Made by a program: the position numbers and the translations under genes. 64,000 bases of DNA, from IMG/VR virus record IMGVR_UViG_3300048780_000186. One strand, given 5' to 3'. The first letter of the stretch is position 1. Each line of letters begins with the position of its first letter. The stretch is from an uncultured virus (IMG/VR IMGVR_UViG_3300048780_000186). Lineage: Duplodnaviria; Heunggongvirae; Uroviricota; Caudoviricetes. Of this stretch, positions 21,998-63,238 are shown in pieces. The notes beneath the pieces were generated by a model. It had not been told where the DNA came from, ran no database searches, and saw nothing but the letters and a program-made list of their open reading frames with translations.

Positions 21998-22309
21998 TTA
22001 TGATTCCCCACTGGTATCCCTTTCTCGAGGTAAAAACACCACACGGTAACGCTGCTGGAAGACGGATTGGGGTTGCCCGAACCGCCAGCGCCGATGTGGC
22101 CGCTGGCCGCGCTCTACAACCCGGAAGGTTCCGAAAGGCAGTTCAACATCCTCGTGTCGCTTCAAAGCAGCCTTGATTTCATCGAAGATCAAATTCACGA
22201 TCTTCCTAGCTGCCCTGTAACTACACCCTCGGCTGACAAGTACCAAAGCCAGGGGATTGTTTCGGCCAATCCCCTGCTTGACAGGCTTCCGCTTTACGCT
22301 TTGGCCCAT
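21998..22309 (-). CDS. HU/IHF-like DNA-binding protein
   Basis: ARKIVNLIFDEIKAALKRHEDVELPFGTFRV...VVF. Confidence 0.7.
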   Translation of the reverse strand: MGQSVKRKPVKQGIGRNNPLALVLVSRGCSYRAARKIVNLIFDEIKAALKRHEDVELPFGTFRVVERGQRPHRRWRFGQPQSVFQQRYRVVFLPRERDTSGES

Positions 22310-23244: not shown

Positions 23245-23423
23245 TACACCTCCGGTTGGCCTTCCATATCGGAGCAAAGGGAACGTATGTCGAACGCCCA
23301 TTCCCAATACCCTGCACGGGTTTCACCAGCGGCAACCTCCCTTTGCCACTCAGCAAAGGGATGCTCTGGGTCTTCGTCGTTCCAATAGTCCTGGCCGTCA
23401 GGTGGCACGTTCGTTGATTGCAC
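23244..23423 (-). CDS. 59-aa hypothetical protein (HP..W..EV..TR..YWEW type)
   Basis: Translated by hand: VQSTNVPPDGQDYWNDEDPEHPFAEWQREVAAGETRAGYWEWAFD...; stop overlaps next ATG. Confidence 0.65.
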   Translation of the reverse strand: MQSTNVPPDGQDYWNDEDPEHPFAEWQREVAAGETRAGYWEWAFDIRSLCSDMEGQPEV

Positions 23424-23861: not shown

Positions 23862-24028
23862 AGTTTGTTCTCCAGATCCATCGCCAGATTGCGCGCCAGA
23901 TTCTCGTCAAATTGACTGTCAGGGTTGATGATCTCCAGGGCAGACTTGACCAGCCCGGCAGTCCTCTCATTCATGACAAGGACCAGCTGGTCGTTATGCT
24001 TGGCGATCGTGTAGTTCGCTTTGCTCAT
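23858..24028 (-). CDS. 56-aa hypothetical protein
   Basis: MSKANYTIAKHNDQLVLVMNERTAG...; ATGA overlaps at both ends. Confidence 0.6.
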   Translation of the reverse strand: MSKANYTIAKHNDQLVLVMNERTAGLVKSALEIINPDSQFDENLARNLAMDLENKL

Positions 24029-31646: not shown

Positions 31647-31858
31647 AGCACTCCTTTGAAAACAGGCGGATGCTTGAAACGCCGGCAAGCGCCTGACTCC
31701 CGATGAAGGTGTGCCTGGCCGGTGTACCGGCAACGCCAGCACACGCGGCGCCAGTCGGATGACTTGACGCCGCGCAGAAGCCACCACCAGAACTGGGAGT
31801 TGAACGGCCAGTGGTGGCGCTTGATGACCTTGTGGGGTTCCCAAAAGAGCTTAGGCAT
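31643..31858 (-). CDS. hypothetical protein
   Basis: 71 aa, coupled to neighbours. Confidence 0.5.
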   Translation of the reverse strand: MPKLFWEPHKVIKRHHWPFNSQFWWWLLRGVKSSDWRRVCWRCRYTGQAHLHRESGACRRFKHPPVFKGVL

Positions 31859-32945
31859 CGTCCTCGTCGGTCGTACTCTGCTTGAACTTCAGGGTGTCGT
31901 AGGCGTCGGCCGCATCCTTGTCTGCGCGCGGTCCCTTGTAGACCGGCTGGAAGAGCGAACCGCCCGGGAAGGCATAGAGGTATTCAACCTCCACGATGCT
32001 GCCGGCCTCGGGAACCTCATAGTTGGCCGGGATCGTGACATTGCCTACTGTTCTAACCCAGGTCGCATCCTGAACAAGGCCGACCTCGACTGAACGCTTG
32101 CCTTGGTTCTGCTGAATGACTTGACAGGTTGCCGAGCCCTTGAATTTGAACTTGAGCTGGTTGCCGCCGGAGTTCGGCCGGCCGGGCACGTACTTGGAGC
32201 CCAGCTTCTTGAAGACCACGCCTTCACCACGCTCGGCTTTGATCTTGTCGAAGAGGGCGCGTTTGGTCTCGGGCGTGTAAGCCGTCGTCAGGAACCCGAT
32301 CGCCGGCAAGGAGGTCGTCCCCAACAAGCCCTCCAACAGAGACCAGCGGTTCTCAACAGGCATGCCGGTCGTATCCTGGCCGCCATAACGGAGAACGTCG
32401 AAGGGCCAGTACACGTCGCCAATCGCTTCGCCGTCCAGGATGAAGTCAGCATCCTGCTTGGTGCGAAGACTCAGAACGCCTGCGGCGATGGACTGGGAAA
32501 CAGCAACGATCAAACCCTTGCGGTTGCCGCCGGTGATCTGGTCACAAACGCGCGTGACAAACTGGCGGACGCCGTCCTTTTTCTCCTGCATGAAGTAGTT
32601 CTCGCTGTCGAGCAGAAACTCCACCTGCTCTTCATCGACAGCGTTCAGGAGCTGCGGGATCAACCCGCTCTGCTGGCCAGCTAGCTCGCTGCCGGCGTAG
32701 GGCGTGCCCTCTTCGCCCTCGGAATAGCCTTTGCCCTTCTTCTCGGCTACGAGCTTGTCGTAGACCTTCTGTGCCGCGGCCAGGGCTACCGGCGTTACGG
32801 TCTTGCTTCCGCTGTTCAGCGTCGAACCCCGCCGACCGTACTGGAAATTGACAACATATCCGTTGTCTTTCTCCTCGATCTGGGCGTGGTAAACCTTGTC
32901 AGAGCTGCCGTCGCGGTACGCGAGGCTGATTGACCGTACACTCAT
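31851..32945 (-). CDS. WGR-domain ATP-dependent DNA ligase
   Basis: SDKVY...YGRRG...K..KGY; QEKKDGVR, LDGE, FDVL, EGVVFK, KFK. Confidence 0.9.
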   Translation of the reverse strand: MSVRSISLAYRDGSSDKVYHAQIEEKDNGYVVNFQYGRRGSTLNSGSKTVTPVALAAAQKVYDKLVAEKKGKGYSEGEEGTPYAGSELAGQQSGLIPQLLNAVDEEQVEFLLDSENYFMQEKKDGVRQFVTRVCDQITGGNRKGLIVAVSQSIAAGVLSLRTKQDADFILDGEAIGDVYWPFDVLRYGGQDTTGMPVENRWSLLEGLLGTTSLPAIGFLTTAYTPETKRALFDKIKAERGEGVVFKKLGSKYVPGRPNSGGNQLKFKFKGSATCQVIQQNQGKRSVEVGLVQDATWVRTVGNVTIPANYEVPEAGSIVEVEYLYAFPGGSLFQPVYKGPRADKDAADAYDTLKFKQSTTDEDDA

Positions 32946-34444: not shown

Positions 34445-34714
34445 TCATAGCTCGATCTCATAGTCGGCGCCCATCGAAACCAGGGAACCTTCTGACCATC
34501 TCTTCTGAAGGTCTTCAAAGCTGCTGAACTCAGGCTCGGAGAATGGATAGATCAGCTCGCCTCCGCCACCTTCCTTTTCGATCACGCCTGCTTTCTCAAG
34601 CGCATAGAGAAAGGCACTGACCCGCGTGAACTCTTCGAGTTCAAGTTCGACATCATCCAGGTACACCTGGTTGTTGTCCGAGTAGATGAACTCAATGCTG
34701 TACTTCATCTTCAT
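34445..34714 (-). CDS. acidic hypothetical protein
   Basis: 89 aa. Confidence 0.6.
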   Translation of the reverse strand: MKMKYSIEFIYSDNNQVYLDDVELELEEFTRVSAFLYALEKAGVIEKEGGGGELIYPFSEPEFSSFEDLQKRWSEGSLVSMGADYEIEL

Positions 34715-35748
34715 GACTTGTCCTCCCGCAGCCGGCGGAACTTGCCCATGCGAAGCGCCGCGCCATCCTTGGTCAGGTTCTGGTAATAAATCTCGGCCAC
34801 AAGGCCGACCAGCTCGCCCCGAAGGTGCTGTTTCCAGAGCCGGTCACGGTCCAGGTCGGAAACCTTCTTGCCCATGCCGACTTCGCATTCGATCATCTGT
34901 TCGCCGGGAACGCTGTCGCTGTCCCGATCCGGTGAGATGTTACCGTCATCGCAGAGATAGCCTCTGACCATCAGGTTGCCCAGGATGCCGGCGTGCTTGC
35001 CGCGGCCTTCCATGGCACCGATGATCTCCATATCGCCGTCGATGAACGGCTTCCACTTGAGCCAGACACCAGACTTTCGGAACTGGTATATGCCATCGAC
35101 ATCCTTGAGAACGATGCCTTCGTAGCCCTGTTCCAGATACAGGTCTGTCCAGTGCTTGATGGCTTCCGGGTTGTTCGGCGCCCGGTAGGCAACTACCTTG
35201 ATGATCTGCAAGTGATTGATGGCATCGGTCGCACAGTCCAGGGAGATCTTCCGGCTCTCTTGTGTTCGAGTGCAGGTCTTGCTCTCGAACTCAGAGGTCA
35301 GAATCGTGTCCCAGACATGGAAGTCAATGGCCAGACTGCGTTCATCGAAGTCATGCCGGCGAAGCAGGCCACTGGTGACATCAAATGCCTCAGGCTGGTC
35401 GATCCCATGGATCAGGAACTCACCATCGAAGGTGCGATTGTCAACCAAAGCTGGATAGAGGACGGCACTCTCTTCAAAGATCTTCAGGATGTGACCGACG
35501 TTGTAGTGCGGCAATCCTGTCGAGCTATAGGCAATCGCCTTTCCGTCCTTGACCACCACGATGCCACGGATGCCATCCAGTTTGGGCTCGAGGTACACCT
35601 CCCGGAACTTGGGTGGTTTCTTCGGGTCGTAGACCTTGCACAGCTGGATGCCCTCGCGCTTGCGGCGGACAACCACCGGGCCTTGAACAGTGATGATCTC
35701 GACTACCTGCTCGCCAGGCTCAAGCTCATCCCAAAGAAATGGGCTCAT
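34711..35748 (-). CDS. ATP-dependent DNA ligase
   Basis: EPKLDGIR, FDGE, VWD, GYEGIVLK, WLKWKP, OB-fold end FRRLREDK. Confidence 0.9.
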   Translation of the reverse strand: MSPFLWDELEPGEQVVEIITVQGPVVVRRKREGIQLCKVYDPKKPPKFREVYLEPKLDGIRGIVVVKDGKAIAYSSTGLPHYNVGHILKIFEESAVLYPALVDNRTFDGEFLIHGIDQPEAFDVTSGLLRRHDFDERSLAIDFHVWDTILTSEFESKTCTRTQESRKISLDCATDAINHLQIIKVVAYRAPNNPEAIKHWTDLYLEQGYEGIVLKDVDGIYQFRKSGVWLKWKPFIDGDMEIIGAMEGRGKHAGILGNLMVRGYLCDDGNISPDRDSDSVPGEQMIECEVGMGKKVSDLDRDRLWKQHLRGELVGLVAEIYYQNLTKDGAALRMGKFRRLREDKS

Positions 35749-35963
35749 CGTTGTTTCCTTTGCTGTAATTGTTTCGGTGGCCAATCAGAAGGCAGCTTGA
35801 ACTTGTGCTTTGGCCAGTCGATCCAGGGCACAAGAACACATGTCGTTTGCACCCAGGAACTGTGTAGCCGCCGCCGTGGGCGCTTGCAGATAGGCTGGCC
35901 ATCGAACTCGTTCCAATAGGCCCAGAACGTACGCCATAAATGAATCGGGTTGTAGATGCGCAT
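35745..35963 (-). CDS. small basic hypothetical protein
   Basis: AGGAG RBS; ATGA overlap with the ligase start. Confidence 0.5.
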   Translation of the reverse strand: MRIYNPIHLWRTFWAYWNEFDGQPICKRPRRRLHSSWVQTTCVLVPWIDWPKHKFKLPSDWPPKQLQQRKQR

Positions 35964-37120: not shown

Positions 37121-38320
37121 CTAGGGCCTCACCGGCATGATCGCGTAGGTCGCGTCGATCCCATCGTTCGCGTCATCCACGATCAACGCCTTGGCCGCCT
37201 TCGCCTTCACGTTGTAGTCACTCACTCCGAAGCGGAGCTTCTCGAGGTTGGAACCGCTGGCCACGTTTTTCACATACGGGAGGTTGGTGGTGATCGAGAT
37301 GTTGAGATCCGCCGGCATTCCCTCTTCCCGCTCAATCGGAAGCTCGTCTGTGATGTCGGCATTCTTGCCCTTGGTGATGACACGAATGACGTCACCGACA
37401 ACCTGGAGCTTCACCAGCAACAGCTCATCGAAAGCCGGCGCGCGTTCGAGCACCTGCTTGAGCTGTTCCCGGTCGATCTTGAACCAAAAGTCCGGGGCGT
37501 GAGTCCGAAGAACACTCACGATGGCCGGGAAGGTTCCGAGCAGTAACCTGGTGCCGAAGAAGGTATTGTCGCCGATCTTGAAGAACAGCTTGACGACATC
37601 GTTACGGCCATTCTTCGGGCCTTCGATGACCTTCACACCGTCTTCCTTCTTGACCAGCTTGGCCAGGGCAGGCAGCGCCAGACGCGGGAGCAGGATGCTC
37701 TCCATCTTCTGCGGGCCTTTCTCGCCCTTGATAATGATCCGCGCGCAAGCGTGGCCGTCCGTCGCCTGCGCTTCAAAGCCCTCATCGCCGCAGAGCAGGC
37801 GCATGCCGCCTAGCTCGAACTGCTGTGTGCCTTCGTTCTCGTTAGGGATGCAGAACGAAACCCGGCGAACGAACTCGGACAAAGCCTGCCCCTTCATGGT
37901 GTAGGCTTCGGGCTGCCGGAAAGGAATCTCCTGCATCCGCTTGGCCATCTCATCCATGCCGGTCGGATTGTCGCTCAGATGGAAGACGCTCTTGCCGATC
38001 TTCACCTGGATCTTGGTCGGCTGATCCTTCTTCTCGATGCGCGAGACGTCGGCAATATCATCCGGGTCGCGGTGGAGCAGGCCGGCACGAAGCTGCCCTG
38101 GATCGAGTAAGGCTTGACCAGGCAATTCGACCGTGGCTGAATGCTTGATGACAGTCTCGGCTTTGTGCATGGTGGTGTACAACAGAACGGCTGCTTCGGT
38201 CTCAGTCTTAAACGCCCTGACCAGGATTCCGCCGGAACCTTCCGTGCTTTTCTTGTCAATCGTGAAGGAGACATCGTTCACTGCTGCGAGCAGGTCTCCG
38301 ACCTTGATCTGGAATTTCAT
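37121..38320 (-). CDS. dnaN: DNA sliding clamp (beta clamp)
   Basis: MKFQI start, ATDGH, LLGTFP, C-terminal AIMPVR. Confidence 0.85.
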   Translation of the reverse strand: MKFQIKVGDLLAAVNDVSFTIDKKSTEGSGGILVRAFKTETEAAVLLYTTMHKAETVIKHSATVELPGQALLDPGQLRAGLLHRDPDDIADVSRIEKKDQPTKIQVKIGKSVFHLSDNPTGMDEMAKRMQEIPFRQPEAYTMKGQALSEFVRRVSFCIPNENEGTQQFELGGMRLLCGDEGFEAQATDGHACARIIIKGEKGPQKMESILLPRLALPALAKLVKKEDGVKVIEGPKNGRNDVVKLFFKIGDNTFFGTRLLLGTFPAIVSVLRTHAPDFWFKIDREQLKQVLERAPAFDELLLVKLQVVGDVIRVITKGKNADITDELPIEREEGMPADLNISITTNLPYVKNVASGSNLEKLRFGVSDYNVKAKAAKALIVDDANDGIDATYAIMPVRP

Positions 38321-39467: not shown

Positions 39468-39792
39468 TTGAACAACTCCTCGGTGGAACGGTGCGGTTGA
39501 TGATCGGGCTAACGACCGCTTTGAACTTGCGGCAGAAAGGGGCCTGCCGTCTGTGAATCTCTTCCAGTTCGGCACGGCCACCCTCACCCAGGCGGAAACC
39601 GTATGGGCATCGCTCGATATACAACTCGTTCAGCGAGTTGAGCATCTGGTGAAAGTGGTCAAGGCCATTTCCCAGTTGCAGGCCGTGTCGTTTGTTCATC
39701 ACGGAACAAACTAACAGTAAGTTCGATTCCGTCATACAATTGTTGGGAGCCATCTCAATCAGCAACAGGACCATACGTTCCACGAGTACCAT
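39412..39792 (-). CDS. hypothetical protein
   Basis: TAATG coupling. Confidence 0.5.
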   Translation of the reverse strand: MVLVERMVLLLIEMAPNNCMTESNLLLVCSVMNKRHGLQLGNGLDHFHQMLNSLNELYIERCPYGFRLGEGGRAELEEIHRRQAPFCRKFKAVVSPIINRTVPPRSCSNATVRIQMPRREEVWASV

Positions 39793-44859: not shown

Positions 44860-45480
44860 CTATACTGCTTCCTCAAGTGGCGGGCACTTGCAGTTGGTGA
44901 GACGTTCTTTACAGGAGCCACAGAGGGCATAGCCCTCGGGATCTACACGCAGGGGCCGGGATTCGGTCAAACGGCCGGCACGAAACAGTTGGCCGGCAGA
45001 GATGCCTCTGACCTTGGTTTTGACAGGCAGCGGCCCGAACATGTTGTCGATGATGGTGCCGTCGAGAGCGAGGTTGCAGAGATAATCGGCATCTCTGTTT
45101 TCTTCCCGCGGATACCACACGTACGAAATGACAATGCCTGAATAGAAAGCCAGGATTTCTCTAATCTGATGTTGAAGTGCTATCAGGTTCTCGTCCTTGC
45201 ATCTCCACTCTCTGGTCATCTGATTGACCAGGAGCTGGGAGTCCGCGCGGAACTCAATACGATCGACGTCGGATGTGAAGTCGAGCAACGGGTCCAGGCT
45301 GTTTACAGCCAGCAGCAGACCCCGGTACTCAGCAACGTTGTTGCTGCCGATCAGAGTCTCGTTCAGGCAGGCAACGTATTTGTGCTGCTCATCGAATGCG
45401 ACGAAGGCACAGGACGCTGGGCCCGGCTCGGTGGCTGAGTTTGAACGGCTGCCACCATCCGTGTAGATGATCAGCTTCAT
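44860..45480 (-). CDS. rnhA: ribonuclease HI family
   Basis: IYTDGGSRSN, SNNVAEY, ADSQLLVNQM, PREENRDADYL. Confidence 0.9.
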   Translation of the reverse strand: MKLIIYTDGGSRSNSATEPGPASCAFVAFDEQHKYVACLNETLIGSNNVAEYRGLLLAVNSLDPLLDFTSDVDRIEFRADSQLLVNQMTREWRCKDENLIALQHQIREILAFYSGIVISYVWYPREENRDADYLCNLALDGTIIDNMFGPLPVKTKVRGISAGQLFRAGRLTESRPLRVDPEGYALCGSCKERLTNCKCPPLEEAV

Positions 45481-45998
45481 GCCGCCAGTTTCCGTTCGTG
45501 GCGGCGGAACTGAATCGTCTTCTTCATCCACTTGTCGAGAATCATCTTCCGGTTCAGCTTACCTTGGTGATCGACGATCAAGATGCCGTTGAGATGGTCG
45601 ATCTCATGCTGAATGACTCGTGCTTCCAGGCCCTCGGCGACCATAGTGATCGGTTGAAAGTCTTCGGTCAGCCCGGTGACGGTGATCTCCGTTGGACGAG
45701 TAACCTTGACCTGCAGGCCGGGCAGGCTCAAGCAACCCTCCGCGGCCGCCGATGTTTCGGAACCGAACTCAATGATCTCGGGATTGGTCAGGGACTGCAT
45801 CTGTCCCTGGTTGTCCTGGTAGATGATGACCCGCTTCAAGACGCCGATCTGATTGGCGGCCAGGCCTTGTCCACCGAAGGAGTGGCAAGCTTCCTTCATG
45901 TCGCCGATCAGATTCGAGAGACCCTCGCCAAACTCAGCATCAACTGGTTCGCAGGTCTTGAGAATTACGCCGTCCGGATATTCGCAGATTGCGGTCAT
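45477..45998 (-). CDS. def: peptide deformylase
   Basis: GQGLAANQIG, EGCLS, QHEIDHLNG. Confidence 0.95.
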   Translation of the reverse strand: MTAICEYPDGVILKTCEPVDAEFGEGLSNLIGDMKEACHSFGGQGLAANQIGVLKRVIIYQDNQGQMQSLTNPEIIEFGSETSAAAEGCLSLPGLQVKVTRPTEITVTGLTEDFQPITMVAEGLEARVIQHEIDHLNGILIVDHQGKLNRKMILDKWMKKTIQFRRHERKLAA

Positions 45999-47806: not shown

Positions 47807-48634
47807 TCAGGCGGATCGTTCTCCTGAGCGTACTTGCGGAAATCGGCCTCTTCCGCCGGGTCGAGCTGGCGAAACAGAATCTCTTGCAGCATGTTTCCTC
47901 TTGCGTTCGCACTGGGTCACCGGTATAGGCGCCATCTGGCCGGTGGCGAGGTTGACGAAGCCTCCTTGATAGGAAACCTCGCGGTGCCTGAACAGCCGCG
48001 CCAGCAAAGCGAGCGCGTGATTGGCCAGCACCTGGTTCACAAAGGGCTCCTGTCGTTTCAACGCCTCGACGGAGCTGCAGGAGGGCAGCGTGTCCTCGCC
48101 GTCCAGTCTGGGATCGATGATCTCCGGGTAGAGTTCCGCGACCGTAAGCAGACGGTACTTGGCATGCTGATTGCGCCGGTTCCGGGGCTGGCCCAGAACG
48201 AACTGGCCGTTGTCGGCATTGTTCCCGATGTCCAGCCAGTAGAGCGTCTTCTTGAAGGCTGGAGACCGGCTGATGGCCAGCCTGGCCGCCCGCGTATCCA
48301 CACAGGTGATCAGGATGTCTACAACCCCATCTGTCTTCTCTGTGAAGTGCCCAGTGGAGGCGTTCCATTTCAGTCCCCAGAAGAGGTTCAGCCTGTTGGC
48401 AATAACCAGTGACTTGTACAGGCCGATCTCCGACTGGGAGAAAGGCTGCCTTACACAATTGGTGGAGGAGATGCGATCGCCATCAACGAAGATGACATTG
48501 AGACCTGGCTGTCCCTCGGCAAGGAGGGACTGGTTGATGTACGGCAAGCCGCCGGCCAGCGCACTACCTGTCCCTCCACATCCCACCACTGCGACGCGGG
48601 TCCGTGAGCATCTGTGATCCAGCTTGTGGTTCAA
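47807..48634 (-). CDS. PRTRC system ThiF-family (E1-like) protein
   Basis: VVGCGGTGS, DGDRISSTNCVRQ, ITCVDT, WLDIGN...GQFVLG, PSCS..EAL..Q; probable TTG start. Confidence 0.9.
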   Translation of the reverse strand: MNHKLDHRCSRTRVAVVGCGGTGSALAGGLPYINQSLLAEGQPGLNVIFVDGDRISSTNCVRQPFSQSEIGLYKSLVIANRLNLFWGLKWNASTGHFTEKTDGVVDILITCVDTRAARLAISRSPAFKKTLYWLDIGNNADNGQFVLGQPRNRRNQHAKYRLLTVAELYPEIIDPRLDGEDTLPSCSSVEALKRQEPFVNQVLANHALALLARLFRHREVSYQGGFVNLATGQMAPIPVTQCERKRKHAARDSVSPARPGGRGRFPQVRSGERSA

Positions 48635-48915
48635 GGGATTGCCACCGATCTCTTGACTCGCTTGTACTTGTTGCGAAGACGTAGCCTCTGCTTGTTGAAG
48701 ATTGTGATCGTCAACCGCGAGCCCATGTTCAGCAGAGAGAATTCCATCTTCTCGACCAGGGCGTAGTGAAGGCTCACCCCAGTCGTTAGATCGACCAGCG
48801 GATACTTGCCCGTGGTCTTGATGTAGAAGCTGCCTTTGCACTCCAGGATGGTTCCGATTTCAAAGTCCTGAAAGCGATAACGCAACCCAACGGTAACAGC
48901 GATTGTGTTCTTCAT
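48631..48915 (-). CDS. hypothetical protein inside PRTRC cassette
   Basis: Coupled at both ends. Confidence 0.6.
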   Translation of the reverse strand: MKNTIAVTVGLRYRFQDFEIGTILECKGSFYIKTTGKYPLVDLTTGVSLHYALVEKMEFSLLNMGSRLTITIFNKQRLRLRNKYKRVKRSVAIP

Positions 48916-49634
48916 TGGCATCCTTCAGTCAGCAAGTCACGAACTGTCTGTTTGGAGGAGTGCAGATACTCGATGCCGAAGGCTTCAGCGCCGGCCAGTT
49001 CCGTCCACAGCCCAAGGAAACCTCCGGGGTGCTTGGTAAGCACGCCAGCTCCGCTGGGATGGGTGAATTCGCTATCGAAGAAACCTTCTTCCCAGACTTC
49101 CAACGTGGACACGTCGGTGACCCTCGGCCGCTTCATGCTGCCGGAGCAGACACTTCCTCGACCGGGCTCGGTGTTCCAGTAGGGAGCCACGAAGAGTGGA
49201 TCTTCCGGATCAGGACGGTGATCCCCAGCCAGAGCGCGCAAGGATAAGCGGCCGCGGTTGACGATCCAGATCAAAGCCGGGTGAGGAAACACCTGGCCAT
49301 TCAGAGCTGCAGCCTCTTCCTTGTGGAAGAACATGGCCCGCTTTCTTGCCGGCGTCCACCAGACAATCGCGTTGGAGGTGCAGGCGATGACATTCGGCGG
49401 CAGGTAAACCAGGCCGGTCTTCTGCCCAAGAGTCTCCAGGAGTTCAGTCAACAACTCGATCGAGATGAGGCTGCCAGGGCCGACCTGCAGTTCCCCGTCC
49501 AGGCAAACCGGCGTGTGTTCAGTCAGGAATCCGGACTTGTCCTTCTCGGTTCCGCCAGCATAGTAGAGCAGCACCTTGTTCAGGGTGTACTCATGGCGCA
49601 TCCCAATGTTTACTTCGAGGTGCATTTCTCCCAC
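48912..49634 (-). CDS. PRTRC system protein B (prokaryotic E2 family D-like)
   Basis: IVWWTPARKR.MFF, PHPALI, APYWN...VCSGS, WEEGFF.SEFTH. Confidence 0.85.
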   Translation of the reverse strand: MGEMHLEVNIGMRHEYTLNKVLLYYAGGTEKDKSGFLTEHTPVCLDGELQVGPGSLISIELLTELLETLGQKTGLVYLPPNVIACTSNAIVWWTPARKRAMFFHKEEAAALNGQVFPHPALIWIVNRGRLSLRALAGDHRPDPEDPLFVAPYWNTEPGRGSVCSGSMKRPRVTDVSTLEVWEEGFFDSEFTHPSGAGVLTKHPGGFLGLWTELAGAEAFGIEYLHSSKQTVRDLLTEGCQ

Positions 49635-50716
49635 TCCTCAACTGTCATCACGCACTTGTTCAGAAGGCCGATCAGCTTGACCATCCGAGGCAGAGCTTCG
49701 AACAGCTGCGCGAATGCCTGGTAGTCATCAGGCCGATAACCCCGGACGATAGTTGGCGTCGGGTCACAGCCGCTGTTGTACAGGTCCTGCTGGTATTCAT
49801 CGATCCAGGCGGTGATGTTGTCCTTCCTGTCGACACCGAGGGCAAGACCGATCTGCGAAGCGCCGTCGTAATACCGGGCATTCCCGACGGAGTATTCCAG
49901 CTCGGGGATTGTCTTCGACAACTTGATCGTCTTGGAAAGCTTGTAGGCTTCCAAGCAGGTCAGGAAGAGTGCCTTGCATTCCTCATCGGGAATGGTGTCG
50001 AAGGCTGCTTTGATGCGACGCTCGGCGAACTTTAACCGGCTGGCTTCCTTGAGATACACCGGACAGTCATTGGGATCGGCGAGCTCCTCAGCCAGAGGCT
50101 CTTCCCCTTGCTCCCTCTCTTCAGCCAGGTAATCCTGACGTATTTCATATTCGGCTTTGGCTTCATTCAAAGAGAAAGGCATCGTCACGGCACAGGCTGC
50201 GCCATAGATCAGCCAGTAGAACGTCGCCATCAGCTTCTCGTACTCAGGAGCATTGCCCAGGCGTTGGACCACCGTATCCAGTGCCATGTATTGCATCGAC
50301 CCATTGGTCCAGGAGAAACACAAGTACAACGGTTCCTTCTTTGCCTTCCGCATCCACTCTTCACTGCTCAGCTCGAAGTGAATCTCAAACCCTTCTTCGC
50401 ACCAACAGGAAGCCAGCATGTCTTTCAGCGCCCGGATCAGAACTTCAACAACATCTTTGGCACCCTCGATGTGTTCATTCCTCACATAGCCTTTGTCCAC
50501 CAGAACTTCTAGCGGTTTGAGAGCCAGCTCCATATCGCGGCGAACCGTGTACTGGAACTGCACCCCGCGCAGACTTGGCAGGCGGAGAAAGTTGGCCGGC
50601 GCGATCAGACCAACGGATGGATCAGACTCGCGGCGGGAGTGAGCAGCTCTTTGTCTCGTTGACGCCTGTCGAACAGCACATGCAGAGCCTGCCCTATCTT
50701 TCGCGCGGATTCGCAT
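49610..50716 (-). CDS. PRTRC system protein F-like (start uncertain)
   Basis: Position between C and B; LPSL..V near N-terminus. Confidence 0.6.
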   Translation of the reverse strand: MRIRAKDRAGSACAVRQASTRQRAAHSRRESDPSVGLIAPANFLRLPSLRGVQFQYTVRRDMELALKPLEVLVDKGYVRNEHIEGAKDVVEVLIRALKDMLASCWCEEGFEIHFELSSEEWMRKAKKEPLYLCFSWTNGSMQYMALDTVVQRLGNAPEYEKLMATFYWLIYGAACAVTMPFSLNEAKAEYEIRQDYLAEEREQGEEPLAEELADPNDCPVYLKEASRLKFAERRIKAAFDTIPDEECKALFLTCLEAYKLSKTIKLSKTIPELEYSVGNARYYDGASQIGLALGVDRKDNITAWIDEYQQDLYNSGCDPTPTIVRGYRPDDYQAFAQLFEALPRMVKLIGLLNKCVMTVEEWEKCTSK

Positions 50717-50817
50717 TTCACAACCTCGCCAACAATGGCAATCGAAGCGGGATCACCCTGATCCGCAAACTCATTGAGCCTGCGGATCAAGGCAACCTTC
50801 TTTGATGATCTGGTCAA
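50605..50817 (-). CDS. small hypothetical protein between PRTRC C and F
   Basis: TTG start, KKVALIRRLNEFA...; overlaps the longest F reading. Confidence 0.4.
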   Translation of the reverse strand: MTRSSKKVALIRRLNEFADQGDPASIAIVGEVVKCESARKIGQALHVLFDRRQRDKELLTPAASLIHPLV

Positions 50818-50821
50818 CTGA

Positions 50822-51031
50822 CTACCCCTTGGCACCCACTGCCCGACCGAAGCGGAACCGCAGCTTGCCGTTGCGGGCCTCAGGGCCCACAACTGTTGCC
50901 GTGGTGATCTCGGGGTACTGCGGAGCGTACATCGCCCGCACCTGCTCGATGGTGAATTCCGGATTGGGGTCCGGCAACACTGCATCATCGAACACGAACT
51001 CCCGCGTCATTTTCTCGACTTTGACTGCCAT
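50822..51031 (-). CDS. PRTRC system protein C (ubiquitin-like)
   Basis: REF...LPDPNP...EQVR..YA..YPEITTA...GPE...GAKG. Confidence 0.9.
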   Translation of the reverse strand: MAVKVEKMTREFVFDDAVLPDPNPEFTIEQVRAMYAPQYPEITTATVVGPEARNGKLRFRFGRAVGAKG

Positions 51032-51618
51032 TATTCGGCCTCGCCTTCGTCGAATCCGTCTGGTAGTTCAGCGGGAAGTTCGCCGTCTTCTGCCGGCGGT
51101 GCCGCAGCGGGTTCCTCGGCGTGAACGGCGGCAGCGGCATTGGCATCGCCCGCGGCCTCCCAGAGTGTGAAGGTATCCGGGGCCTGGGCAGTACCAGCCG
51201 TTGTCTTGGTTGGATGAACGGCAGGCTTGCCTTCATCCTTCTTGTCGGCCTTCGCCGGCGTCACCTTGGTCTTGGCCTTCGCCGTTGCTTCCTTGGCTGA
51301 CTTGGCAACCTCGGCAAGCGTCTCCTGGAGTTCCTTCAGGCTTTCCAGAACGGTTGTGTGGCCGTCGGAGTAGCTGGCCAGCAATTGAGGCAGCTCAGCG
51401 TCGATCTCTTCGGGTGTGCCCACCAGGGATAGGGGTGTGATCAAGGCTGCAACATCTTCCTTTGTCACGCCTTCCTTCTGGGTCACGTCGCGGGTCAGCT
51501 GGCTGTCACTGTCGACCGCCTTGGGAATGACGTTGACCCTGATTTTGGTCTTGTCAACCGAAGCGATCGTAATCGTCACGGGCCGACTCTTCAGAATCGG
51601 CATCAGTTCTGTGAACAT
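51031..51618 (-). CDS. PRTRC system protein E
   Basis: MFTELMP...VNVIP...PLSLVGTPEEIDAEL. Confidence 0.85.
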   Translation of the reverse strand: MFTELMPILKSRPVTITIASVDKTKIRVNVIPKAVDSDSQLTRDVTQKEGVTKEDVAALITPLSLVGTPEEIDAELPQLLASYSDGHTTVLESLKELQETLAEVAKSAKEATAKAKTKVTPAKADKKDEGKPAVHPTKTTAGTAQAPDTFTLWEAAGDANAAAAVHAEEPAAAPPAEDGELPAELPDGFDEGEAE

Positions 51619-51651
51619 GGTTGTCCTCGCCCAATGGGCTGTTGATGTTGG

Positions 51652-52839
51652 CTATAGATCGGTTACACCGGAACGGTGGCCGCCAAGCTCAGTCCTGAAT
51701 CGGATCTGACCTTTGAATTCCTCCGGCCGGTTCCAATCGAACAGACACGGATCACTCAGGTTGTAAAAGGGATTGATTTCCAACAGCTTGACACCGTACT
51801 GGTTATAGCTGTCAGAAAGACTCCGCCGGCGCTTGATGAACACATCGAAGACTACTGAATCGAGATGAGAAGCATCTCGCAATTCCTTGTCAAAGAACTG
51901 CTCGATCGCCCACTTGATGCCGGCGGCGTCTTCGGTAATCTCCGAGTACACTCCGCGGTAGTAGTATTGGCTGATCCCGACGAGCTTGCGGTCCTGCATG
52001 AAGCAACGGAACTCTGACCACTCGGGCAGGTCCAGGCCCTCACGGATCCAAACACTGGGCGGGTAGTTCATGGCGATCTGCATATGCAGGTCGTCATAGA
52101 TGCGCTCGGAACAGCAGGTCAGGAGATCGAAAGCCATCTGGCCTGAGGTGATTTGGCCATTTGGCAACTGAGCGCCTTCGCCGAGGCCACATCCCCAGTA
52201 AAAAGCATCCTTCGGACTGCGCGAGCCAAGGCGGACAAAGATACCCTTTGGGAACTGCTGAACGGCCTTGTCCAGCCGCGCGATCAGGAGATCCTTTACC
52301 GTCTCGTGGTTCTCGGGCACACCCTCGGTAAATCCTTCGCCCAGCTCGATGATGTAGCTGCCCATGACGCGCGCTTCTTCCAGGGTCATCTGAACCCTTA
52401 CTGAGGGAACTGACAAGCTGTGCAAAGCGTTCGGCCAGCTCTCGATGTAGGTCGGCCATGACACATCCCAGATGGGTCCCTTGGGCTTGTATCTCTCCGA
52501 CTCGGGCTTCTTCAACCACTCTTCCCCGGCGGCTATACTTGCCTTCATCATGGCAAGAGAAAACTCATGGCGCTCTGGTGAACCAGGCGCGCCGAACTCT
52601 GCGAACCGATCTGTCGAGGGGTCGTAATCACTCATGTCAGGAATATCTTCCTGATGTGCAACGGCGCCGCCGGTACGGCCGCACCCTTCGCAAGAATGGC
52701 TGGTGTGGGATAAACAGCCGACATGGCTGCATGGTTCATCTGGCTCAAGCGCTGTCGCTGTGGTTAAACCAGCGATCCGCTCCTGCTCCCGCCACCATTC
52801 AGGGGGATGAGTGTGCTCATTCATCGTGGTGTCTGCCAT
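51652..52839 (-). CDS. Cdc123/R2K-like ATP-grasp protein
   Basis: FVRLGSRSPKDA, EFRCFM...GISQYY, VVFDV, LLEINPF..SDPCLFDW. Confidence 0.85.
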   Translation of the reverse strand: MADTTMNEHTHPPEWWREQERIAGLTTATALEPDEPCSHVGCLSHTSHSCEGCGRTGGAVAHQEDIPDMSDYDPSTDRFAEFGAPGSPERHEFSLAMMKASIAAGEEWLKKPESERYKPKGPIWDVSWPTYIESWPNALHSLSVPSVRVQMTLEEARVMGSYIIELGEGFTEGVPENHETVKDLLIARLDKAVQQFPKGIFVRLGSRSPKDAFYWGCGLGEGAQLPNGQITSGQMAFDLLTCCSERIYDDLHMQIAMNYPPSVWIREGLDLPEWSEFRCFMQDRKLVGISQYYYRGVYSEITEDAAGIKWAIEQFFDKELRDASHLDSVVFDVFIKRRRSLSDSYNQYGVKLLEINPFYNLSDPCLFDWNRPEEFKGQIRFRTELGGHRSGVTDL

Positions 52840-52852
52840 GTTTCTCCAAAGT

Positions 52853-52936
52853 TGGACGGCGGTTGGATTCGAACCCACGAAGGCTTGAGCCGGCAGTTTT
52901 GCAGATTGCCGCGTTTGACCACTTCGCTACCGCACG
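52853..52936 (-). tRNA. atypical tRNA-Cys(GCA) with long variable arm
   Basis: D arm GCGAAGTGGTCAAACGC, loop CTGCAAA, extra arm GGCTCAAGCC, GGTTCGAATCC, ends T-CCA; imperfect acceptor. Confidence 0.65.
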
Positions 52937-55958: not shown

Positions 55959-56045
55959 TGGTGCAGATGAAGAGACTCGAACTCATACGCCCTTACGGGC
56001 ACCAGCACCTCAAGCTGGCGTGTCTGCCAATTCCACCACATCTGC
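55959..56045 (-). tRNA. tRNA-Leu(GAG)
   Basis: Full cloverleaf, loop TTGAGGT, long variable arm, encoded CCA. Confidence 0.92.
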
Positions 56046-56054
56046 GCTACACGG

Positions 56055-56128
56055 TGGCTGGCGGTCAGGGATTCGAACCCCGATAAGCGCCTCCAAAGGG
56101 CACTATCCTACCGTTAGATGAACCGCCA
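56055..56128 (-). tRNA. tRNA-Gln(TTG)
   Basis: Full cloverleaf, loop CTTTGGA, encoded CCA. Confidence 0.92.
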
Positions 56129-57693: not shown

Positions 57694-58317
57694 TCAGACA
57701 CTGACGGAGACCAGCTTGTGGCGAACCGCGTACATGACGAGTTGAACTTTGTTGTGGCACCCGATCTTCTCCATCAAGGTCGACTTATGCACTTCCACGG
57801 TCTTTGCGCTCAAACCGAGGAGGATGGAGATTTCCTTGACGCTGTTTCCCTCGGCGAGCATCTTTAGAACCTCATTCTGTCGAGGAGACAGCCGATGGAA
57901 GCCGGCAGAGTGTTCATGTCCGGTAAATCTGGGCTGAATGGAAAAGTGGGAATCGCCGCGATAGATCTTGGCAATCACTTTCTGCAGCTCATCGAAACCA
58001 CACGTCTTCGTCAGGTAGGCCGAGGCTCCAGCTTCGACTGCATTGAGGATATGCTCTTCTTCGGTTGATCCGGTAAGAAACATCACTTTCAGTGGAAAGT
58101 GAGAAGACTTGGCCCATCGAGCCGCTTCAAATGGATCGGCGCCTGGGATATTCACATCGAGGATGAGAACATCGACCTTCTGGTCGACAGCATGTTCTGC
58201 TGCCTCGCGCGCATCTCCATGATCCCCGATGATTCGGATCGTGGAAGTCTGTTCCATGATCTTGCACAGAATTTCACGGACCAGAACATGGTCGTCCGCC
58301 ATTACACATCGAATCAT
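57694..58317 (-). CDS. NarL/LuxR-family response regulator
   Basis: ADDH, LILDVNIP, FLT, YLTK; LSPRQNEVLKMLAEG...KTVEVHK. Confidence 0.92.
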   Translation of the reverse strand: MIRCVMADDHVLVREILCKIMEQTSTIRIIGDHGDAREAAEHAVDQKVDVLILDVNIPGADPFEAARWAKSSHFPLKVMFLTGSTEEEHILNAVEAGASAYLTKTCGFDELQKVIAKIYRGDSHFSIQPRFTGHEHSAGFHRLSPRQNEVLKMLAEGNSVKEISILLGLSAKTVEVHKSTLMEKIGCHNKVQLVMYAVRHKLVSVSV

Positions 58318-58369
58318 TGGCCTTTTTTCCTCTCAGCTAATATCAGGCCGGAAGATGGCCGTATTGAGG

Positions 58370-58387
58370 ATAGGGGAAAGCCCCTAT
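58370..58387. promoter_or_regulatory. palindromic motif B upstream of response regulator
   Basis: ATAGGGG-AAAG-CCCCTAT. Confidence 0.6.
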
Positions 58388-58444
58388 GAATCTTTTGTGA
58401 CATGGAATACATGATGTTTCTGTATAATGCGCGTCCGGTCTGCT

Positions 58445-58842
58445 GGGCGCCCGAAGGCGCCCTTCTGTTGCCAGGCCAAGCAGACTTGGCCCCGTCTAGT
58501 CTTTCGGACTAGACAGCAGCAAGAACGCCCAGGATGTTCTCCGCGGCCGTGGCCGGTTCGAAGACCTCAAACGTCATGCTGGCGACATACCCAGTGTTGG
58601 CATATATGCGTCTGTGTGTCCTTCTGCCGATCCAGAGATCGACACGGCAGCCACACCACCCGGCTCGTCATCTCTATCCGTCACTGATTCCGTCGAAACC
58701 GTGACGGGCCCACCAAAGCCCTCTCTGACTTACATTCCCCCGAAGTTCGGTGAACTTCAGCTAAAGCATGAGGGCTTTGGTGGACCCGGAGGGAATCGAA
58801 CCCTCGTCCGAAATCGTGAAGACGATCTGTCTTCTCACGAGC
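58445..58842 (-). ncRNA. ssrA: circularly permuted (two-piece) tmRNA gene
   Basis: Acceptor piece about 58842-58778 ends GAGGGTTCGATTCCCTC-CGGGTCC-A-CCA; coding piece starts 58711 GGGCCCGTCACGGTTTCGAC; G3:U70; tag frame 58601-58509; 3' end of coding piece approximate. Confidence 0.9.
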
Positions 58843-58870
58843 GTTATACTCCCCATTTCTGAGGAAACTT

Positions 58871-59241
58871 GATGCGGGAGACTCTCGCCAGTGAGCCTTT
58901 AATCAACTTTGGAGCCGGTTCTTTCCGGAATCTCCACGGCAAGACCCGCATCTGTGGGCACAGTGTCAACGTTTTTATCGTGGTGTGCGTCGCCCACCTG
59001 GTGCCTTGTTCCGTGCCCAATTTGCTTTGGGTGCAGCCAAAGCCTCGTCCGCTGTGTGTCGAAGGTACTTCCGTCTGGGCTACTTTGCGTTTCGAACTGA
59101 ATCTACTTTGCGTTTGGCCTACTCTTGGTTTCCCGTGCACTGGTCAGCCACGAAGTCCTTGCAGTCAACGCCTTTCGGCTCCTGCTCTGACTTCGCCGGC
59201 GGGAATATCAACCCGTCGCCCGCTACCCATCCGCACCCAAA
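58871..59241 (-). ncRNA. candidate structured RNA(s): three tandem closed domains
   Basis: Closing stems 59026-34/59233-41, 58955-61/59013-19 and 58871-78/58945-52. Confidence 0.55.
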
Positions 59242-61443: not shown

Positions 61444-62085
61444 CTACTGGGGATCCCAGCCGATCTGTTCGATCACGTCGGTATCGTGATGCTCGTAACC
61501 GCGAAGCTCTGCCTGGCCGACCGTCACCGGGTCTTGTATGCCCATCGTGATTCGTTGGCACAGCCTGTGGGTCAAGACGATTCCGACAGCCACACTCAGA
61601 TTGAAGCAGTGGTAGGCCGGGATCTTGATGAACCGATGGCAGAGCGCGCGGTAGACCTGTGGAATGGAACCATCCTCGGGTCCGAAGAGGTAAACTCCCC
61701 GGTCGGGATGGATGAAGTCGTTCAGTGGTTCTGCGTTCTCTACGACCTCGATCGCCACCGGTGTAATCCCCGGTTCGAACAGGTCGAGAGGCTTATCGCT
61801 GGTGCCCCATTGAACATCGGCATACCCGCGCATGCGTTCTTCCCGCGGCAGCCGGTCATAGTCATGGGGATTGACCCGCTTTCCTGTCCACAGCAGATTG
61901 TCGATTCCCGTGCAGGAACAGGTGCGCAGGACACCACCAACATTGCGGACGTATTTCGGGTTCACCAGAACGACGCCGCTGCCTTGCAGCGGCAGCCGGG
62001 CGCCGTGCTGTAGGCAACGCCTGAGTACCTTCTTGCCTTCAAACAGACATCCGCATTTCTCAGCTCTCAGTGCGTCAGTTGCCAT
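61444..62085 (-). CDS. SpoU/TrmH-family RNA methyltransferase
   Basis: NPK...NVGGVLRT, LFGPEDGSI, FIKIP...CFNLSVAVGIVL. Confidence 0.85.
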   Translation of the reverse strand: MATDALRAEKCGCLFEGKKVLRRCLQHGARLPLQGSGVVLVNPKYVRNVGGVLRTCSCTGIDNLLWTGKRVNPHDYDRLPREERMRGYADVQWGTSDKPLDLFEPGITPVAIEVVENAEPLNDFIHPDRGVYLFGPEDGSIPQVYRALCHRFIKIPAYHCFNLSVAVGIVLTHRLCQRITMGIQDPVTVGQAELRGYEHHDTDVIEQIGWDPQ

Positions 62086-62091
62086 GATTCC

Positions 62092-62532
62092 TCAGTATTG
62101 TGCGAGTGTGATTGCCGTGACATTGAACCGGCGTTTGGCCTTGTCGTAGATGTCGTCCAGATCGAGATCGATGCGTTCGCCGGCGCTGTTGAAGGCCGTT
62201 GCATGCCCGTTGAGGTAGCGCAGCTTTTCACTGCCTATTTGCTCAAAGACAACGATCTGATCGTCCTGAATCAGTTCTGCCAGCTCGGCTACAAGATCGA
62301 CTTCATCATTGTCCTCGTCTGCACCGAGATCGACCGTCGGCCAACCGCCGCTGTCGTTGACAGCGTCATCCGGCGCAACTCCAAACAGCTTTCTGGGATC
62401 TTTGCCGTCGGCCGGTTTCTCTTCCATTTCTTCCCAAACCTCCAGACCGCGCTTGGCTGCCCACGCGCGGAAAGCAGCCTCATCCTTTACCGCAAAGTAG
62501 TTGCTGCGTGCACTGCCGTACCAGTTTGCCAT
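62092..62532 (-). CDS. hypothetical protein
   Basis: MANWYGSARSNYFAVKD...GSEKLRY. Confidence 0.7.
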   Translation of the reverse strand: MANWYGSARSNYFAVKDEAAFRAWAAKRGLEVWEEMEEKPADGKDPRKLFGVAPDDAVNDSGGWPTVDLGADEDNDEVDLVAELAELIQDDQIVVFEQIGSEKLRYLNGHATAFNSAGERIDLDLDDIYDKAKRRFNVTAITLAQY

Positions 62533-62606: not shown

Positions 62607-63110
62607 TCACGCCGCAGTTTGTTCCAGCGCCACCACTCCAGAAATGCCTTGATCATTGCGCTCCCAACTCTTGTTCGCCATCAGGTCAAGCCAGTAGATC
62701 CGCTCGGCCATCAGAATCCGGCCCAGCCAGTTCGTGCCTTGGCCATTGCAGACACCGTAGAAGTAGTCGTGCCAGGTGTTGCCCTCAACAAGATCGTGAG
62801 GGAAGGTATTCACCAGCTGAATGCGAATGTCCTTGTTCTGGGTGAACTTGGCATGAACCACCTCGGACATGACGATCAGACTGATCTCTTTCCAGTCCGG
62901 CCGCGTGAGATGCTTCAGCTCCTTCGAAAGCTTCTTGGCGCCTTTGCCATCCGTGCTCTCGTACTTGAGCCTGTATTCCTCATCTTGCGGCAGCAGCTTG
63001 GCCGCCTGGTAGGCGCTTTCGCCGTTCTGGTACAGATGGCCGCTATGCCACAGCGGCGCCTCATGGAAGTTCGACAACCAACGATATTCGCCCATGAATG
63101 AATCGATCAT
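62607..63110 (-). CDS. NADAR (YbiA-like) family protein
   Basis: WLSNF, ESAYQAAK, RPDW, AKFTQN, LVEGNTWHDYFYG, GTNWLGRILM. Confidence 0.9.
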   Translation of the reverse strand: MIDSFMGEYRWLSNFHEAPLWHSGHLYQNGESAYQAAKLLPQDEEYRLKYESTDGKGAKKLSKELKHLTRPDWKEISLIVMSEVVHAKFTQNKDIRIQLVNTFPHDLVEGNTWHDYFYGVCNGQGTNWLGRILMAERIYWLDLMANKSWERNDQGISGVVALEQTAA

Positions 63111-63238
63111 CTTCAACCTTTCCGTCCCTGTGTCCCGATAGGAGCATCGCCAAACGTTCCCGTCAGAAACACAGGGCACGGGCGGTGAGACCGGATCGTT
63201 GGCGCGACCGGTACATAGTCTCTTTCCGCAGCTTGAGG

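Follow-up and report, generated by a model that had tools for sequence, protein, structure and literature searches.

What kind of gene lies on the minus strand close to one end of a 64,000-nucleotide (nt) stretch of DNA from an uncultured Caudoviricetes virus (IMG/VR record IMGVR_UViG_3300048780_000186; this whole stretch is hereafter called the window), and where would a phage have obtained it? An original prediction, made from the letters of the window alone, claimed a transfer-messenger RNA (tmRNA) gene, ssrA, with its two pieces in permuted order and a long peptide tag, and the locus is confirmed as a real permuted two-piece tmRNA gene. ARAGORN calls a permuted tmRNA (tmRNA*) at 58418–58870 on the minus strand, and the Rfam model RF04321 (tmRNA_permuted) matches 58842–58574 on the same strand over its full length (1–213 of 213) with 70.8 bits (E=1.4e-11) against a cut-off (gathering threshold) of 47 bits, a result identical when the whole 124-kb record containing the window is searched. 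The tag of 30 amino acids stands where it had been predicted, at 58601–58509 (positions 270–362 of the ARAGORN gene), and reads ANTGYVASMTFEVFEPATAAENILGVLAAV, followed by a stop.

Gene order, boundaries and conserved structure

On the minus strand, the encoded CCA (58780–58778) comes before GGGCCCG (58711–58705), a spacer lies between them, and the mRNA-like part comes last. All the elements named in the original prediction, that is the T arm, CCA, acceptor strands, G3:U70 pair, inverted repeat and P2 pairings, are at the positions given for them. The predicted extent of 58445..58842 holds for the core and not for the limits, the gene reaching from a conserved leader hairpin (58866–58849) to a 3' structure that ends at about 58438. 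A close likeness to alphaproteobacterial ssrA, which would have removed the novelty of the permutation, is excluded, the alpha_tmRNA model RF01849 giving only 9 bits (E=1.9; threshold 50). The beta_tmRNA model RF01850 gives 47.6 bits over model positions 76–172, the tRNA-like domain only, and thus stays below its cut-off of 84. The cyanobacterial model RF01851 has no match in the window at E up to 10; because lower-scoring overlapping matches of the same clan were suppressed, its score lies below the 47.6 bits of the beta model. The features of the gene are given below, partly from alignment A3, which holds 14 sequences (the window, two other phage copies, seven genes of host type A and three of host type B, both discussed later, and one gene of another phage lineage); where no source is named, the element was located in the sequence itself.

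58849–58866, minus strand: leader hairpin TTCCTC/GGGGAG, directly 5' of the acceptor piece, folding in 13 of 14 homologues
58778–58842, minus strand: core of the acceptor piece (ARAGORN, Rfam alignment, RNAalifold, pair counts)
58842–58837, 58829–58822 and 58815–58809, minus strand: P2 3' strands, in the acceptor piece
58692–58686, 58676–58669 and 58668–58663, minus strand: P2 5' strands, in the coding piece
58842–58837 with 58668–58663, minus strand: P2 pairing GCTCGT with ACGAGC
58819–58810 with 58691–58681, minus strand: P2 pairing TCACGATTTC with GGAATCAGTGA
58805–58789, minus strand: T arm, with T stem GAGGG (58805–58801) and CCCTC (58793–58789)
58788–58782, minus strand: acceptor 3' strand CGGGTCC, with U70 at 58784
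58781 and 58780–58778, minus strand: discriminator A (A73), then the encoded CCA
58711–58705, minus strand: acceptor 5' strand GGGCCCG, with G3 at 58709
58712–58777, minus strand: spacer of 66 nt, closed by a 12-bp inverted repeat
58781–58770 with 58723–58712, minus strand: spacer inverted repeat ACCAAAGCCCTC/GAGGGCTTTGGT
58663–58711, minus strand: start of the coding piece, with GGGCCCG, GGTTTCGACGG and the P2 5' strands (Rfam, RNAalifold, pair counts)
58609–58664, minus strand: region equivalent to pseudoknot 1 (PK1) (alignment A3; nested pairing read by eye, host A versus host B)
58664–58651, minus strand: conserved motif of the PK1 region, GCCGGGTGGTGTGG (alignment A3)
58650–58645 with 58629–58624, minus strand: PK1-region hairpin CTGCCG/CGGCAG, extended by about 20 nt relative to host type A
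58619–58614, minus strand: ACACAC after the PK1-region hairpin (alignment A3)
58509–58601, minus strand: tag frame, with resume codon GCC at 58601–58599, 30 codons and stop codon TAG at 58511–58509 (ARAGORN, translation)
58496–58512, minus strand: hairpin P5, CTAGT...ACTAG, with the stop codon in its 5' strand (RNAalifold; 95.7% of cells paired)
58438–58491, minus strand: 3' structure of the coding piece, two hairpins and candidate pseudoknot partners
58491–58474, minus strand: hairpin GGCCAA/TTGGCC with loop GTCTGC, in the 3' structure
58462–58445, minus strand: hairpin GGGCGCC/GGCGCCC, in the 3' structure

The alanine identity elements are complete, comprising a 7-bp acceptor stem, G3:U70 (58709:58784) and the discriminator A at 58781. 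The leader hairpin has a stem sequence of its own in each of the three groups (phage, host A and host B) and probably makes up the 5' end region of the acceptor piece. The spacer, presumed to be removed on maturation, carries an inverted repeat that extends the acceptor stem in the precursor, and both its length and its sequence are free to vary among homologues, from about 12 nt (contig L016 and host B) to about 75 nt (contig L007). The PK1 region may be described, by eye, as the conserved motif followed by a two-tier hairpin. Further downstream, the tag frame has no start codon and begins at the resume codon, while its stop lies inside the hairpin at 58512–58496. The loop of the phage 3' hairpin has two candidate pseudoknot partners, CAGA within 58469–58462 or GCAGAC at 58443–58438; the equivalent host loop pairs just downstream with covarying partners (GGGAG/CTCCC, GATG/CATC and GACG/CGTC). 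RNAalifold also proposed several helices inside the tag frame, which were unconvincing and kept out of the core structure, and the plus-strand open reading frames (ORFs) across the gene (58427–58687 and 58614–58862) were taken as mechanical.

On alignment A3, RNAalifold recovered the acceptor stem, the T arm, the three P2 helices and the stop-codon hairpin. Over the 14 homologues, 96.4% of the cells of 38 core pairs are paired, with changes on both sides in 16 of the 38; none of 500 shuffles reached these values, and sliding the partners by 1–3 columns left 37–48% paired. As both controls fall short, the pairing exceeds chance. The T arm is paired in 98.6% of cells with three of its five pairs covarying, the three P2 helices are 87.5–100% paired with 11 of 20 pairs covarying, and G3:U70 is invariant in 14/14 homologues. 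The structure is conserved and under selection.

Relatives in phages and in the Acidobacteriaceae

The window corresponds to bases 57643–121642, reversed, of a 124,053-nt IMG/VR record (G000) that is classed as a provirus and estimated to be 58% complete. The identical permuted order occurs on 14 further contigs, namely the IMG/VR contig L007 of a sister phage (G001), the 3.26-Mb contig L016 of genome G002, and 12 metagenome contigs found by a wobble-tolerant pattern built from the tag, ten of which are called by ARAGORN and two of which are cut by contig ends. An assembly artefact that reorders a one-piece gene, a danger that the original prediction had raised, is thereby set aside, because the same order was reached on these 14 contigs in separate assemblies. 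In its broadest form, the artefact explanation would have a one-piece gene put together in the wrong order, a false join between host and phage DNA, or a mere pair of tRNA-like fragments, and it is hardly credible. The 38 scattered base differences between the window and the stored record do indicate more than one assembly version, yet none of them falls in the tmRNA gene, the order recurs even within a 3.26-Mb contig, a homologous permuted gene is the only tmRNA in seven bacterial genomes, and both the full-length Rfam match and ARAGORN support the gene.

The carrier is a temperate phage of the Acidobacteriaceae, roughly 160–180 kb in size, as seen from a collinear copy between host genes and an integrase on a relative. 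The whole 124-kb record is collinear, at 76–96% identity, with G002:C4:3096961-3225185; G002 is an Acidobacteriaceae metagenome-assembled genome with the 3.26-Mb contig, found by a pattern scan of species-representative genomes. Ordinary acidobacterial genes flank this prophage below about 3,075,000 and above about 3,255,500, among them dehydrogenases, a CarboxypepD_reg/OMP barrel protein, a GH3 enzyme and parts of an ABC transporter. The tyrosine integrase is located at G001:C1:307-807, at the very end of the 178-kb relative G001 (83% complete), while Pfam identified no structural genes in the regions scanned. The tmRNA lies deep inside the phage, in an early/replication region, and not at the attachment site. 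The original prediction had noted that the window lacks smpB; this extends further, with no SmpB found in the 124-kb record or in the 178-kb relative.

Among isolated phages, none shares DNA with the window over any length. The sole near-DNA match covers 70 nt within a tRNA-Leu of Rhodobacter phage RcXuper, the distant DNA matches of the tmRNA extend over 32–37 nt of the T arm, and the best protein match of the phage helicase is 35% identical. The phage primase-helicase has a match in one of 401 sampled Acidobacteriaceae genomes, at 40% identity, and related prophages are therefore rare among species representatives. In a different phage lineage, represented by two IMG/VR contigs of 83 and 48 kb (L010:1336-1753 and L011), a permuted tmRNA whose coding piece shares its 22-nt 5' end with the window lies within a tRNA cluster and encodes a 10-residue tag, AAAFALPVAA; on L010, an ARAGORN tRNA-Glu (1677–1753) overlaps the 3' end of the called tmRNA.

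That 22-nt 5' end was found on 12 species-representative contigs, nine of which belong to the Acidobacteriaceae. ARAGORN calls six of these permuted, with tags of 28 residues, for example ANKGVFASKSNVVSFPTKSVAPAFALAA (host type A); contig L015 (genome G003) has no ARAGORN call, its permuted gene being found by Rfam, and another of the nine is the G002 prophage copy. When 151 genomes of the family were sampled, RF04321 scored above its cut-off in six, four of which ARAGORN calls permuted (one of type A and three of type B, the latter with tags such as ANTASVASRKSNLLTFAPRNTSAVAFAAAA). The other two, together with 23 of 24 further listed loci, are standard tmRNAs with tags of 9–10 residues, and the remaining listed locus, L060, has no ARAGORN call. 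A standard tmRNA scores over the RF00023 cut-off in 0/4 (G003–G006) and 0/3 (G033, G111 and G054) permuted-bearing genomes, one SmpB is present in each of the four Acidobacteriaceae genomes searched (G004, G111, G054 and the lysogen-type G002), and the host permuted genes sit among housekeeping genes. For these three reasons, the permuted long-tag form is the tmRNA that such Acidobacteriaceae use.

In alignment A3, the phage genes align with the host permuted genes from the leader hairpin to the stop hairpin, and on the beta model host types A and B score 51–54 bits, below its cut-off. The suggestion of an independent permutation in the phage therefore did not survive, a homologous permuted ssrA being the sole tmRNA of some Acidobacteriaceae, and the long tag fares no better as a phage novelty, given that hosts with the homologous gene have tags of 28–30 residues. 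Since the host clade shares both, neither the permutation nor the long tag is a phage invention. Most likely, the phage took the gene from an Acidobacteriaceae host with a permuted ssrA, because the gene belongs to that host clade.

The distribution of the permuted gene among the hosts is patchy. Within the genus of G004, 37 species representatives comprise 11 with the permuted gene, 24 with the standard gene, none with both and two with neither. In a quick maximum-likelihood tree of a 2.3-kb rpoB fragment (30 rows, covering 26 of the 37 species and four outgroups, with 11 species omitted for lack of the full fragment), the eight permuted-bearing species fall in four places, and an approximately unbiased (AU) test, on this single gene fragment, rejects placing them in one clade, at a cost of 194.5 log-likelihood units (p=1.3e-5). 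G004, G003 and G006 have their permuted genes at different, non-syntenic sites. The M48-FabZ-LpxA-LpxI block 3' of the permuted gene in G004 is kept in five other genomes without a permuted gene there; conversely, G004, G003 and G006 keep the surroundings of the G185 standard gene minus the tmRNA, and G003 retains 208 nt adjoining the G185-type standard tmRNA site. With non-syntenic permuted genes and an emptied ancestral locus, the simplest reading is that the standard gene has repeatedly given way to a permuted one at another site.

The host side may thus matter more than the phage, and its replacement history is the part most worth following. Permuted genes that occur within one family, exclude the standard gene in one genus, do not form a clade there and leave the old locus emptied offer material on how permuted RNA genes arise and how a gene found almost everywhere can be replaced. 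It could be speculated that the permuted long-tag ssrA is mobile in the Acidobacteriaceae and has replaced the standard gene at least three times in one genus at different sites, with temperate phages as vehicles and a private tag that alters handling, a proposal that we regard as quite improbable. If it were true, phages would have mediated the replacement of a near-universal stable RNA gene, and a lysogen with both genes, such as G002, would be the intermediate state. The host-type-A PK1 motif has no match in viral contigs, the host-type-B motif matches only the sister phage G001, and no phage with a host-type tag was found among the viral contigs scanned with the host PK1 motifs.

Two further observations were made in these host genomes. 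At L036:14425-14546 in G004, beside the LpxI/AhpC block, lies a 115-nt element that is present at more than 15 sites in G187:C1 with 80–87% identity and looks like a small dispersed repeat resembling a miniature inverted-repeat transposable element. G184, a species of the G004 genus, has two standard tmRNA genes 82 kb apart (C1:1694355-1694708 and 1776088-1776440), scoring 158.5 and 171.6 bits.

Tag, mosaic copies and possible function

In the phage, host A and host B genes, the resume position and the structural stop coincide, and the tag frame between them is open throughout. The nucleotide identity of this frame between phage and hosts is 48–55%, with a single length difference of 6 nt, and the first 16 codons align without gaps between the phage and host type A. 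At the C-terminus, the phage tag ends L-A-A-V-stop and the host tag L-A-A-stop, the difference being an additional GTC codon just ahead of the phage stop; the -AAV ending is confined to the phage copies, while hosts have ALAA or AAAA. The tags also differ in charge, with no basic and three acidic residues in the phage tag and three basic and no acidic residues in each of the two host tags, A and B. Among 15 phage-type copies, the 90-nt frame changes only at residue 3 (T/S), at residues 23–24 (IL, TL or TT) and at one synonymous site, and the 3' structure is as constant as the frame.

The copies are mosaic. In the acceptor piece, the window is 82% identical to host A and 64% identical to the sister phage, and in the PK1 region the sister phage is 79% identical to host B and 43% identical to the window. 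In the tag and 3' part, by contrast, the window and the sister phage are 99% identical, the two upstream forms share 96–99%, and phage and host share 38–55%. The first form of the upstream half is found in the window and 11 other contigs, and the second in G001, G002 and a single metagenome contig; where the two forms differ in the T stem and P2, the changes compensate each other. Exchange of the tRNA-like half with a host-type ssrA, while the mRNA module was retained, is what recombination would give, since the upstream half resembles host A in one form and host B in the other. Such copies warn against naive host prediction from the similarity of phage tmRNAs or tRNAs.

With a gene derived from a host clade, a temperate carrier and an mRNA module almost identical in 15 copies, as a recent common origin would give, it might be asked whether this is a passenger, a host ssrA recently picked up by imprecise excision or recombination and without function for the phage. 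We consider this very unlikely. The gene lies mid-genome between phage genes and not at an attachment site, the tag has diverged to 48–55% nucleotide identity from the hosts yet kept its frame, both diverged tRNA-like halves keep all pairs through compensatory changes, and the G002 copy resides in a host with its own standard tmRNA.

We think it likely that the gene encodes a functional two-piece tmRNA that would rely on the AlaRS (alanyl-tRNA synthetase), SmpB, EF-Tu and tRNA-processing enzymes of the host. A single minus-strand precursor would contain the leader hairpin, the acceptor piece, the 66-nt spacer and the coding piece, in which tRNA-processing enzymes would cleave just ahead of G58711 and trim back as far as the encoded CCA at 58778, leaving two RNAs held together by the 7-bp acceptor stem and the three P2 helices. 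Host AlaRS would charge this RNA by way of G3:U70 and A73, and host SmpB would deliver it to ribosomes stalled on broken mRNAs, where translation would resume at GCC 58601 and add the 30-residue tag ending in LAAV. The probable gain for the phage is added rescue capacity during infection or induction. As the -AAV ending is specific to the phage copies, a different fate for proteins tagged in this way is a reasonable idea; that rescued proteins do meet a fate unlike that of host-tagged ones seems to us possible rather than probable.

As for expression, 14 RNA runs from 14 studies (peat, permafrost, wetland and bioreactor) hold 17–71% of the sampled words of 58300–59000, and in four RNA libraries from four studies contigs cover the gene in all four. 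RNA contigs at 58650–58907 (with no differences) and 58523–58875 run from the acceptor piece through the spacer into the coding piece, which hints weakly at a precursor transcript; neither uncovered stretches in such contigs (58617–58676 in X1) nor contig ends are readable as RNA ends.

Several points weigh against a working tmRNA with a tag of its own. In the RNA libraries, the contig depth of 2–9 is like that of the flanks, and the contigs may be DNA carry-over. A minus-strand scan found no sigma-70-type promoter-like sites and no intrinsic terminators on the strand of the gene. The PK1 pseudoknot is not drawable in the window copy, in which the 20-nt hairpin extension competes with one candidate stem, and the near-invariant mRNA module, with its four variable sites, could stem from a recent sweep or from gene conversion instead of selection. 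Andersen et al. reportedly observed in 1998 that AAV-ended tags still act as a degron in E. coli. There, giving a tag AAV in place of its final LAA is a standard way of changing the degradation rate (PMC12013620); the valine cap may tune proteolysis and need not block it. Among 58 ORFs searched with PHROGs and 99 ORFs searched with Pfam, none matched a Clp, Lon, adaptor or SmpB family, so nothing on the phage points to a special fate of tagged proteins. The analysis itself shows the gene, its conserved structure and relatives, its place in a prophage, the mosaic and the lack of a phage smpB; processing, charging, tagging and the benefit to the phage are what we infer.

In place of added rescue capacity, it could also be imagined that the phage tmRNA competes with that of the host, taking up SmpB and stalled ribosomes and exchanging the short ALAA degron for a differently handled tag, and so blunts host quality control or a tmRNA-dependent defence. 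G002 would be the setting, where a standard tmRNA (tag ANQELALAA, translated from the sequence) stands beside the phage copy; in the absence of a phage smpB, both RNAs must share the single SmpB of the host. The reversed charge balance of the phage tag and its extra C-terminal valine fit this proposal, as does the inhibition of host tmRNA reported for a phage tmRNA that consists of the tRNA-like domain only (PMC11915505, PMC4131195). The proposal is nevertheless purely inferential, and the AAV ending matches the E. coli degradation-rate variant (PMC12013620), so we hold competition to be unlikely. A bacterium of the G002 type would be a natural contrast, with a standard 9-residue ALAA tag and a prophage 30-residue LAAV tag, and two tags in one cell could show which RNA rescues which proteins.

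The surroundings of the gene are those of a phage replication region. Most of the named PHROGs matches among 58 long ORFs concern phage replication and nucleotide metabolism, including a primase-helicase, a UvsX-like recombinase, a two-piece DNA polymerase, ribonucleotide reductase, a clamp and a clamp loader, further names being two ligase-like genes, an exonuclease V/Dda-type helicase, RNase H, peptide deformylase and an HNH endonuclease. The nearest downstream features are as follows.

57694–58317, minus strand: NarL/LuxR-type response regulator, the next gene downstream (Pfam Response_reg and GerE)
55959–56128, minus strand: two phage tRNA genes, Leu-GAG and Gln-TTG, 2.3 kb downstream of the tmRNA (ARAGORN and Rfam)

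The response regulator is 90% identical in the sister phage (L007), where it too lies downstream of the tmRNA, and Rfam calls no riboswitch in the window. Other passengers with a link to translation or RNA lie near the tmRNA on the minus strand; Pfam identifies them as a peptide deformylase (45477–45998), a SpoU-family RNA methylase (61444–62085) and a NADAR-domain protein (62607–63179). At 47807–52878 (minus strand), ThiF, Prok-E2_D, PRTRC_E (weak) and D123-like Pfam domains resemble a PRTRC-type (ThiF/E2-related) cassette. The family-A-type DNA polymerase is found in two minus-strand ORFs (22294–23307 and 24025–25425) that match consecutive parts of one PHROG profile (659–990 and 996–1210) with a 144-aa ORF between them, and may be a split gene or contain a mobile insert. 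Two ATP-dependent DNA ligase-like genes lie within 4 kb (31851–32945 and 34711–35784, minus strand), and a third ligase OB-domain protein is encoded elsewhere in the record (L115:11651-13315). The 38 bases that differ between the window and the record are clustered in patches (e.g., 62114–62173, 37469–37868, 35749–35919, 39716–39769 and 21660–21724) and look like strain variation or two assembly versions.

Outside the window, Pfam finds a PAS-GGDEF diguanylate cyclase, a GroES-like Cpn10, a thioredoxin and a non-specific DNA/RNA endonuclease on G000:C1 (25188–26357, 28162–28500, 53397–53783 and 56254–57267, respectively), and the endonuclease could be a source of broken mRNAs rescued by the tmRNA. 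At the left edge of the G002 prophage (about 3,080,000–3,095,000), an adenylosuccinate-synthetase-like gene, possibly PurZ-like, is fused to an AAA_18 kinase-like domain (L075:357-1985), followed by DUF7002, GmrSD, UvrD, DNA methylase and ResIII genes (L075:5561-15269); all of these may be part either of the phage or of a host defence island.

Comparison with known tmRNA systems

Two-piece tmRNA has been described for three main bacterial clades, according to the account of the 2025 tmRNA database (PMC11915505). A literature search found no published account of permuted tmRNA in Acidobacteria, and in the covariance models and seed alignments of the supplement to PMC11915505 neither "Acidobacteri-" nor four genus names nor "Phage" gave a match; the database behind it may already list acidobacterial genes. 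Phage-borne two-piece tmRNA is already published, and the acidobacterial permuted lineage is the new part. New here are the Acidobacteriaceae host and temperate lifestyle of the phage, the homology to a host long-tag ssrA, the patchy, exclusive and non-syntenic distribution of that host gene, the valine-capped acidic tag and the mosaic.

The closest published phage counterpart is the ssrA of the OM43 phage Melnitz, which Buchholz et al. 2022 describe along with 53 unique two-piece forms that ARAGORN calls in a set of 18,146 phage genomes (PMC9004378). Melnitz-type tmRNAs resemble the window gene as complete permuted ssrA genes with their own tag in a large phage without smpB, stand upstream of a transcription regulator gene and are thought to derive from bacteria with two-piece tmRNA (PMC9004378). 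They are mostly carried by marine or aquatic lytic myophages and are of alphaproteobacterial type (PMC9004378), whereas the window belongs to a temperate soil or peat phage of Acidobacteriaceae. The window gene further differs from them in its 9 bits on the alpha model, its 30-residue acidic tag ending in LAAV and the lack of an Rfam riboswitch call. The phage tmRNAs of Buchholz et al. 2022 are said to have short tags.

Host types A and B share with the phage the gene order, the leader hairpin, the three P2 helices, the PK1-region motif, the resume context ATGCCAAC, a tag of 28–30 codons and the stop in the P5 hairpin, and type A also the acceptor stem GGGCCCG/CGGGTCC. They are unlike it in being chromosomal and the sole tmRNA, with basic tags ending in ALAA or AAAA, the phage tag being acidic and one C-terminal codon longer. 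Of the subtype models, the betaproteobacterial RF01850 scores best for the window, and a beta-type gene on L005 (152.3 bits on RF01850) has a T arm and acceptor 3' strand identical to those of the window over 25 nt, although its tag has 10 residues and that of the window 30. The functional paradigm is the two-piece tmRNA of Caulobacter, for which Keiler, Shapiro and Williams reportedly showed in 2000 that one precursor loses its spacer and yields two base-paired RNAs that are charged and tag proteins. That tmRNA is chromosomal and of alphaproteobacterial type, and its tag has about 14 residues compared with 30 in the window. Finally, the tmRNAs of mycobacteriophages of the Bxz1 group and of Bacillus phage G likewise represent phage ssrA without smpB, but have the one-piece standard order and belong to phages of other host phyla (PMC4131195).

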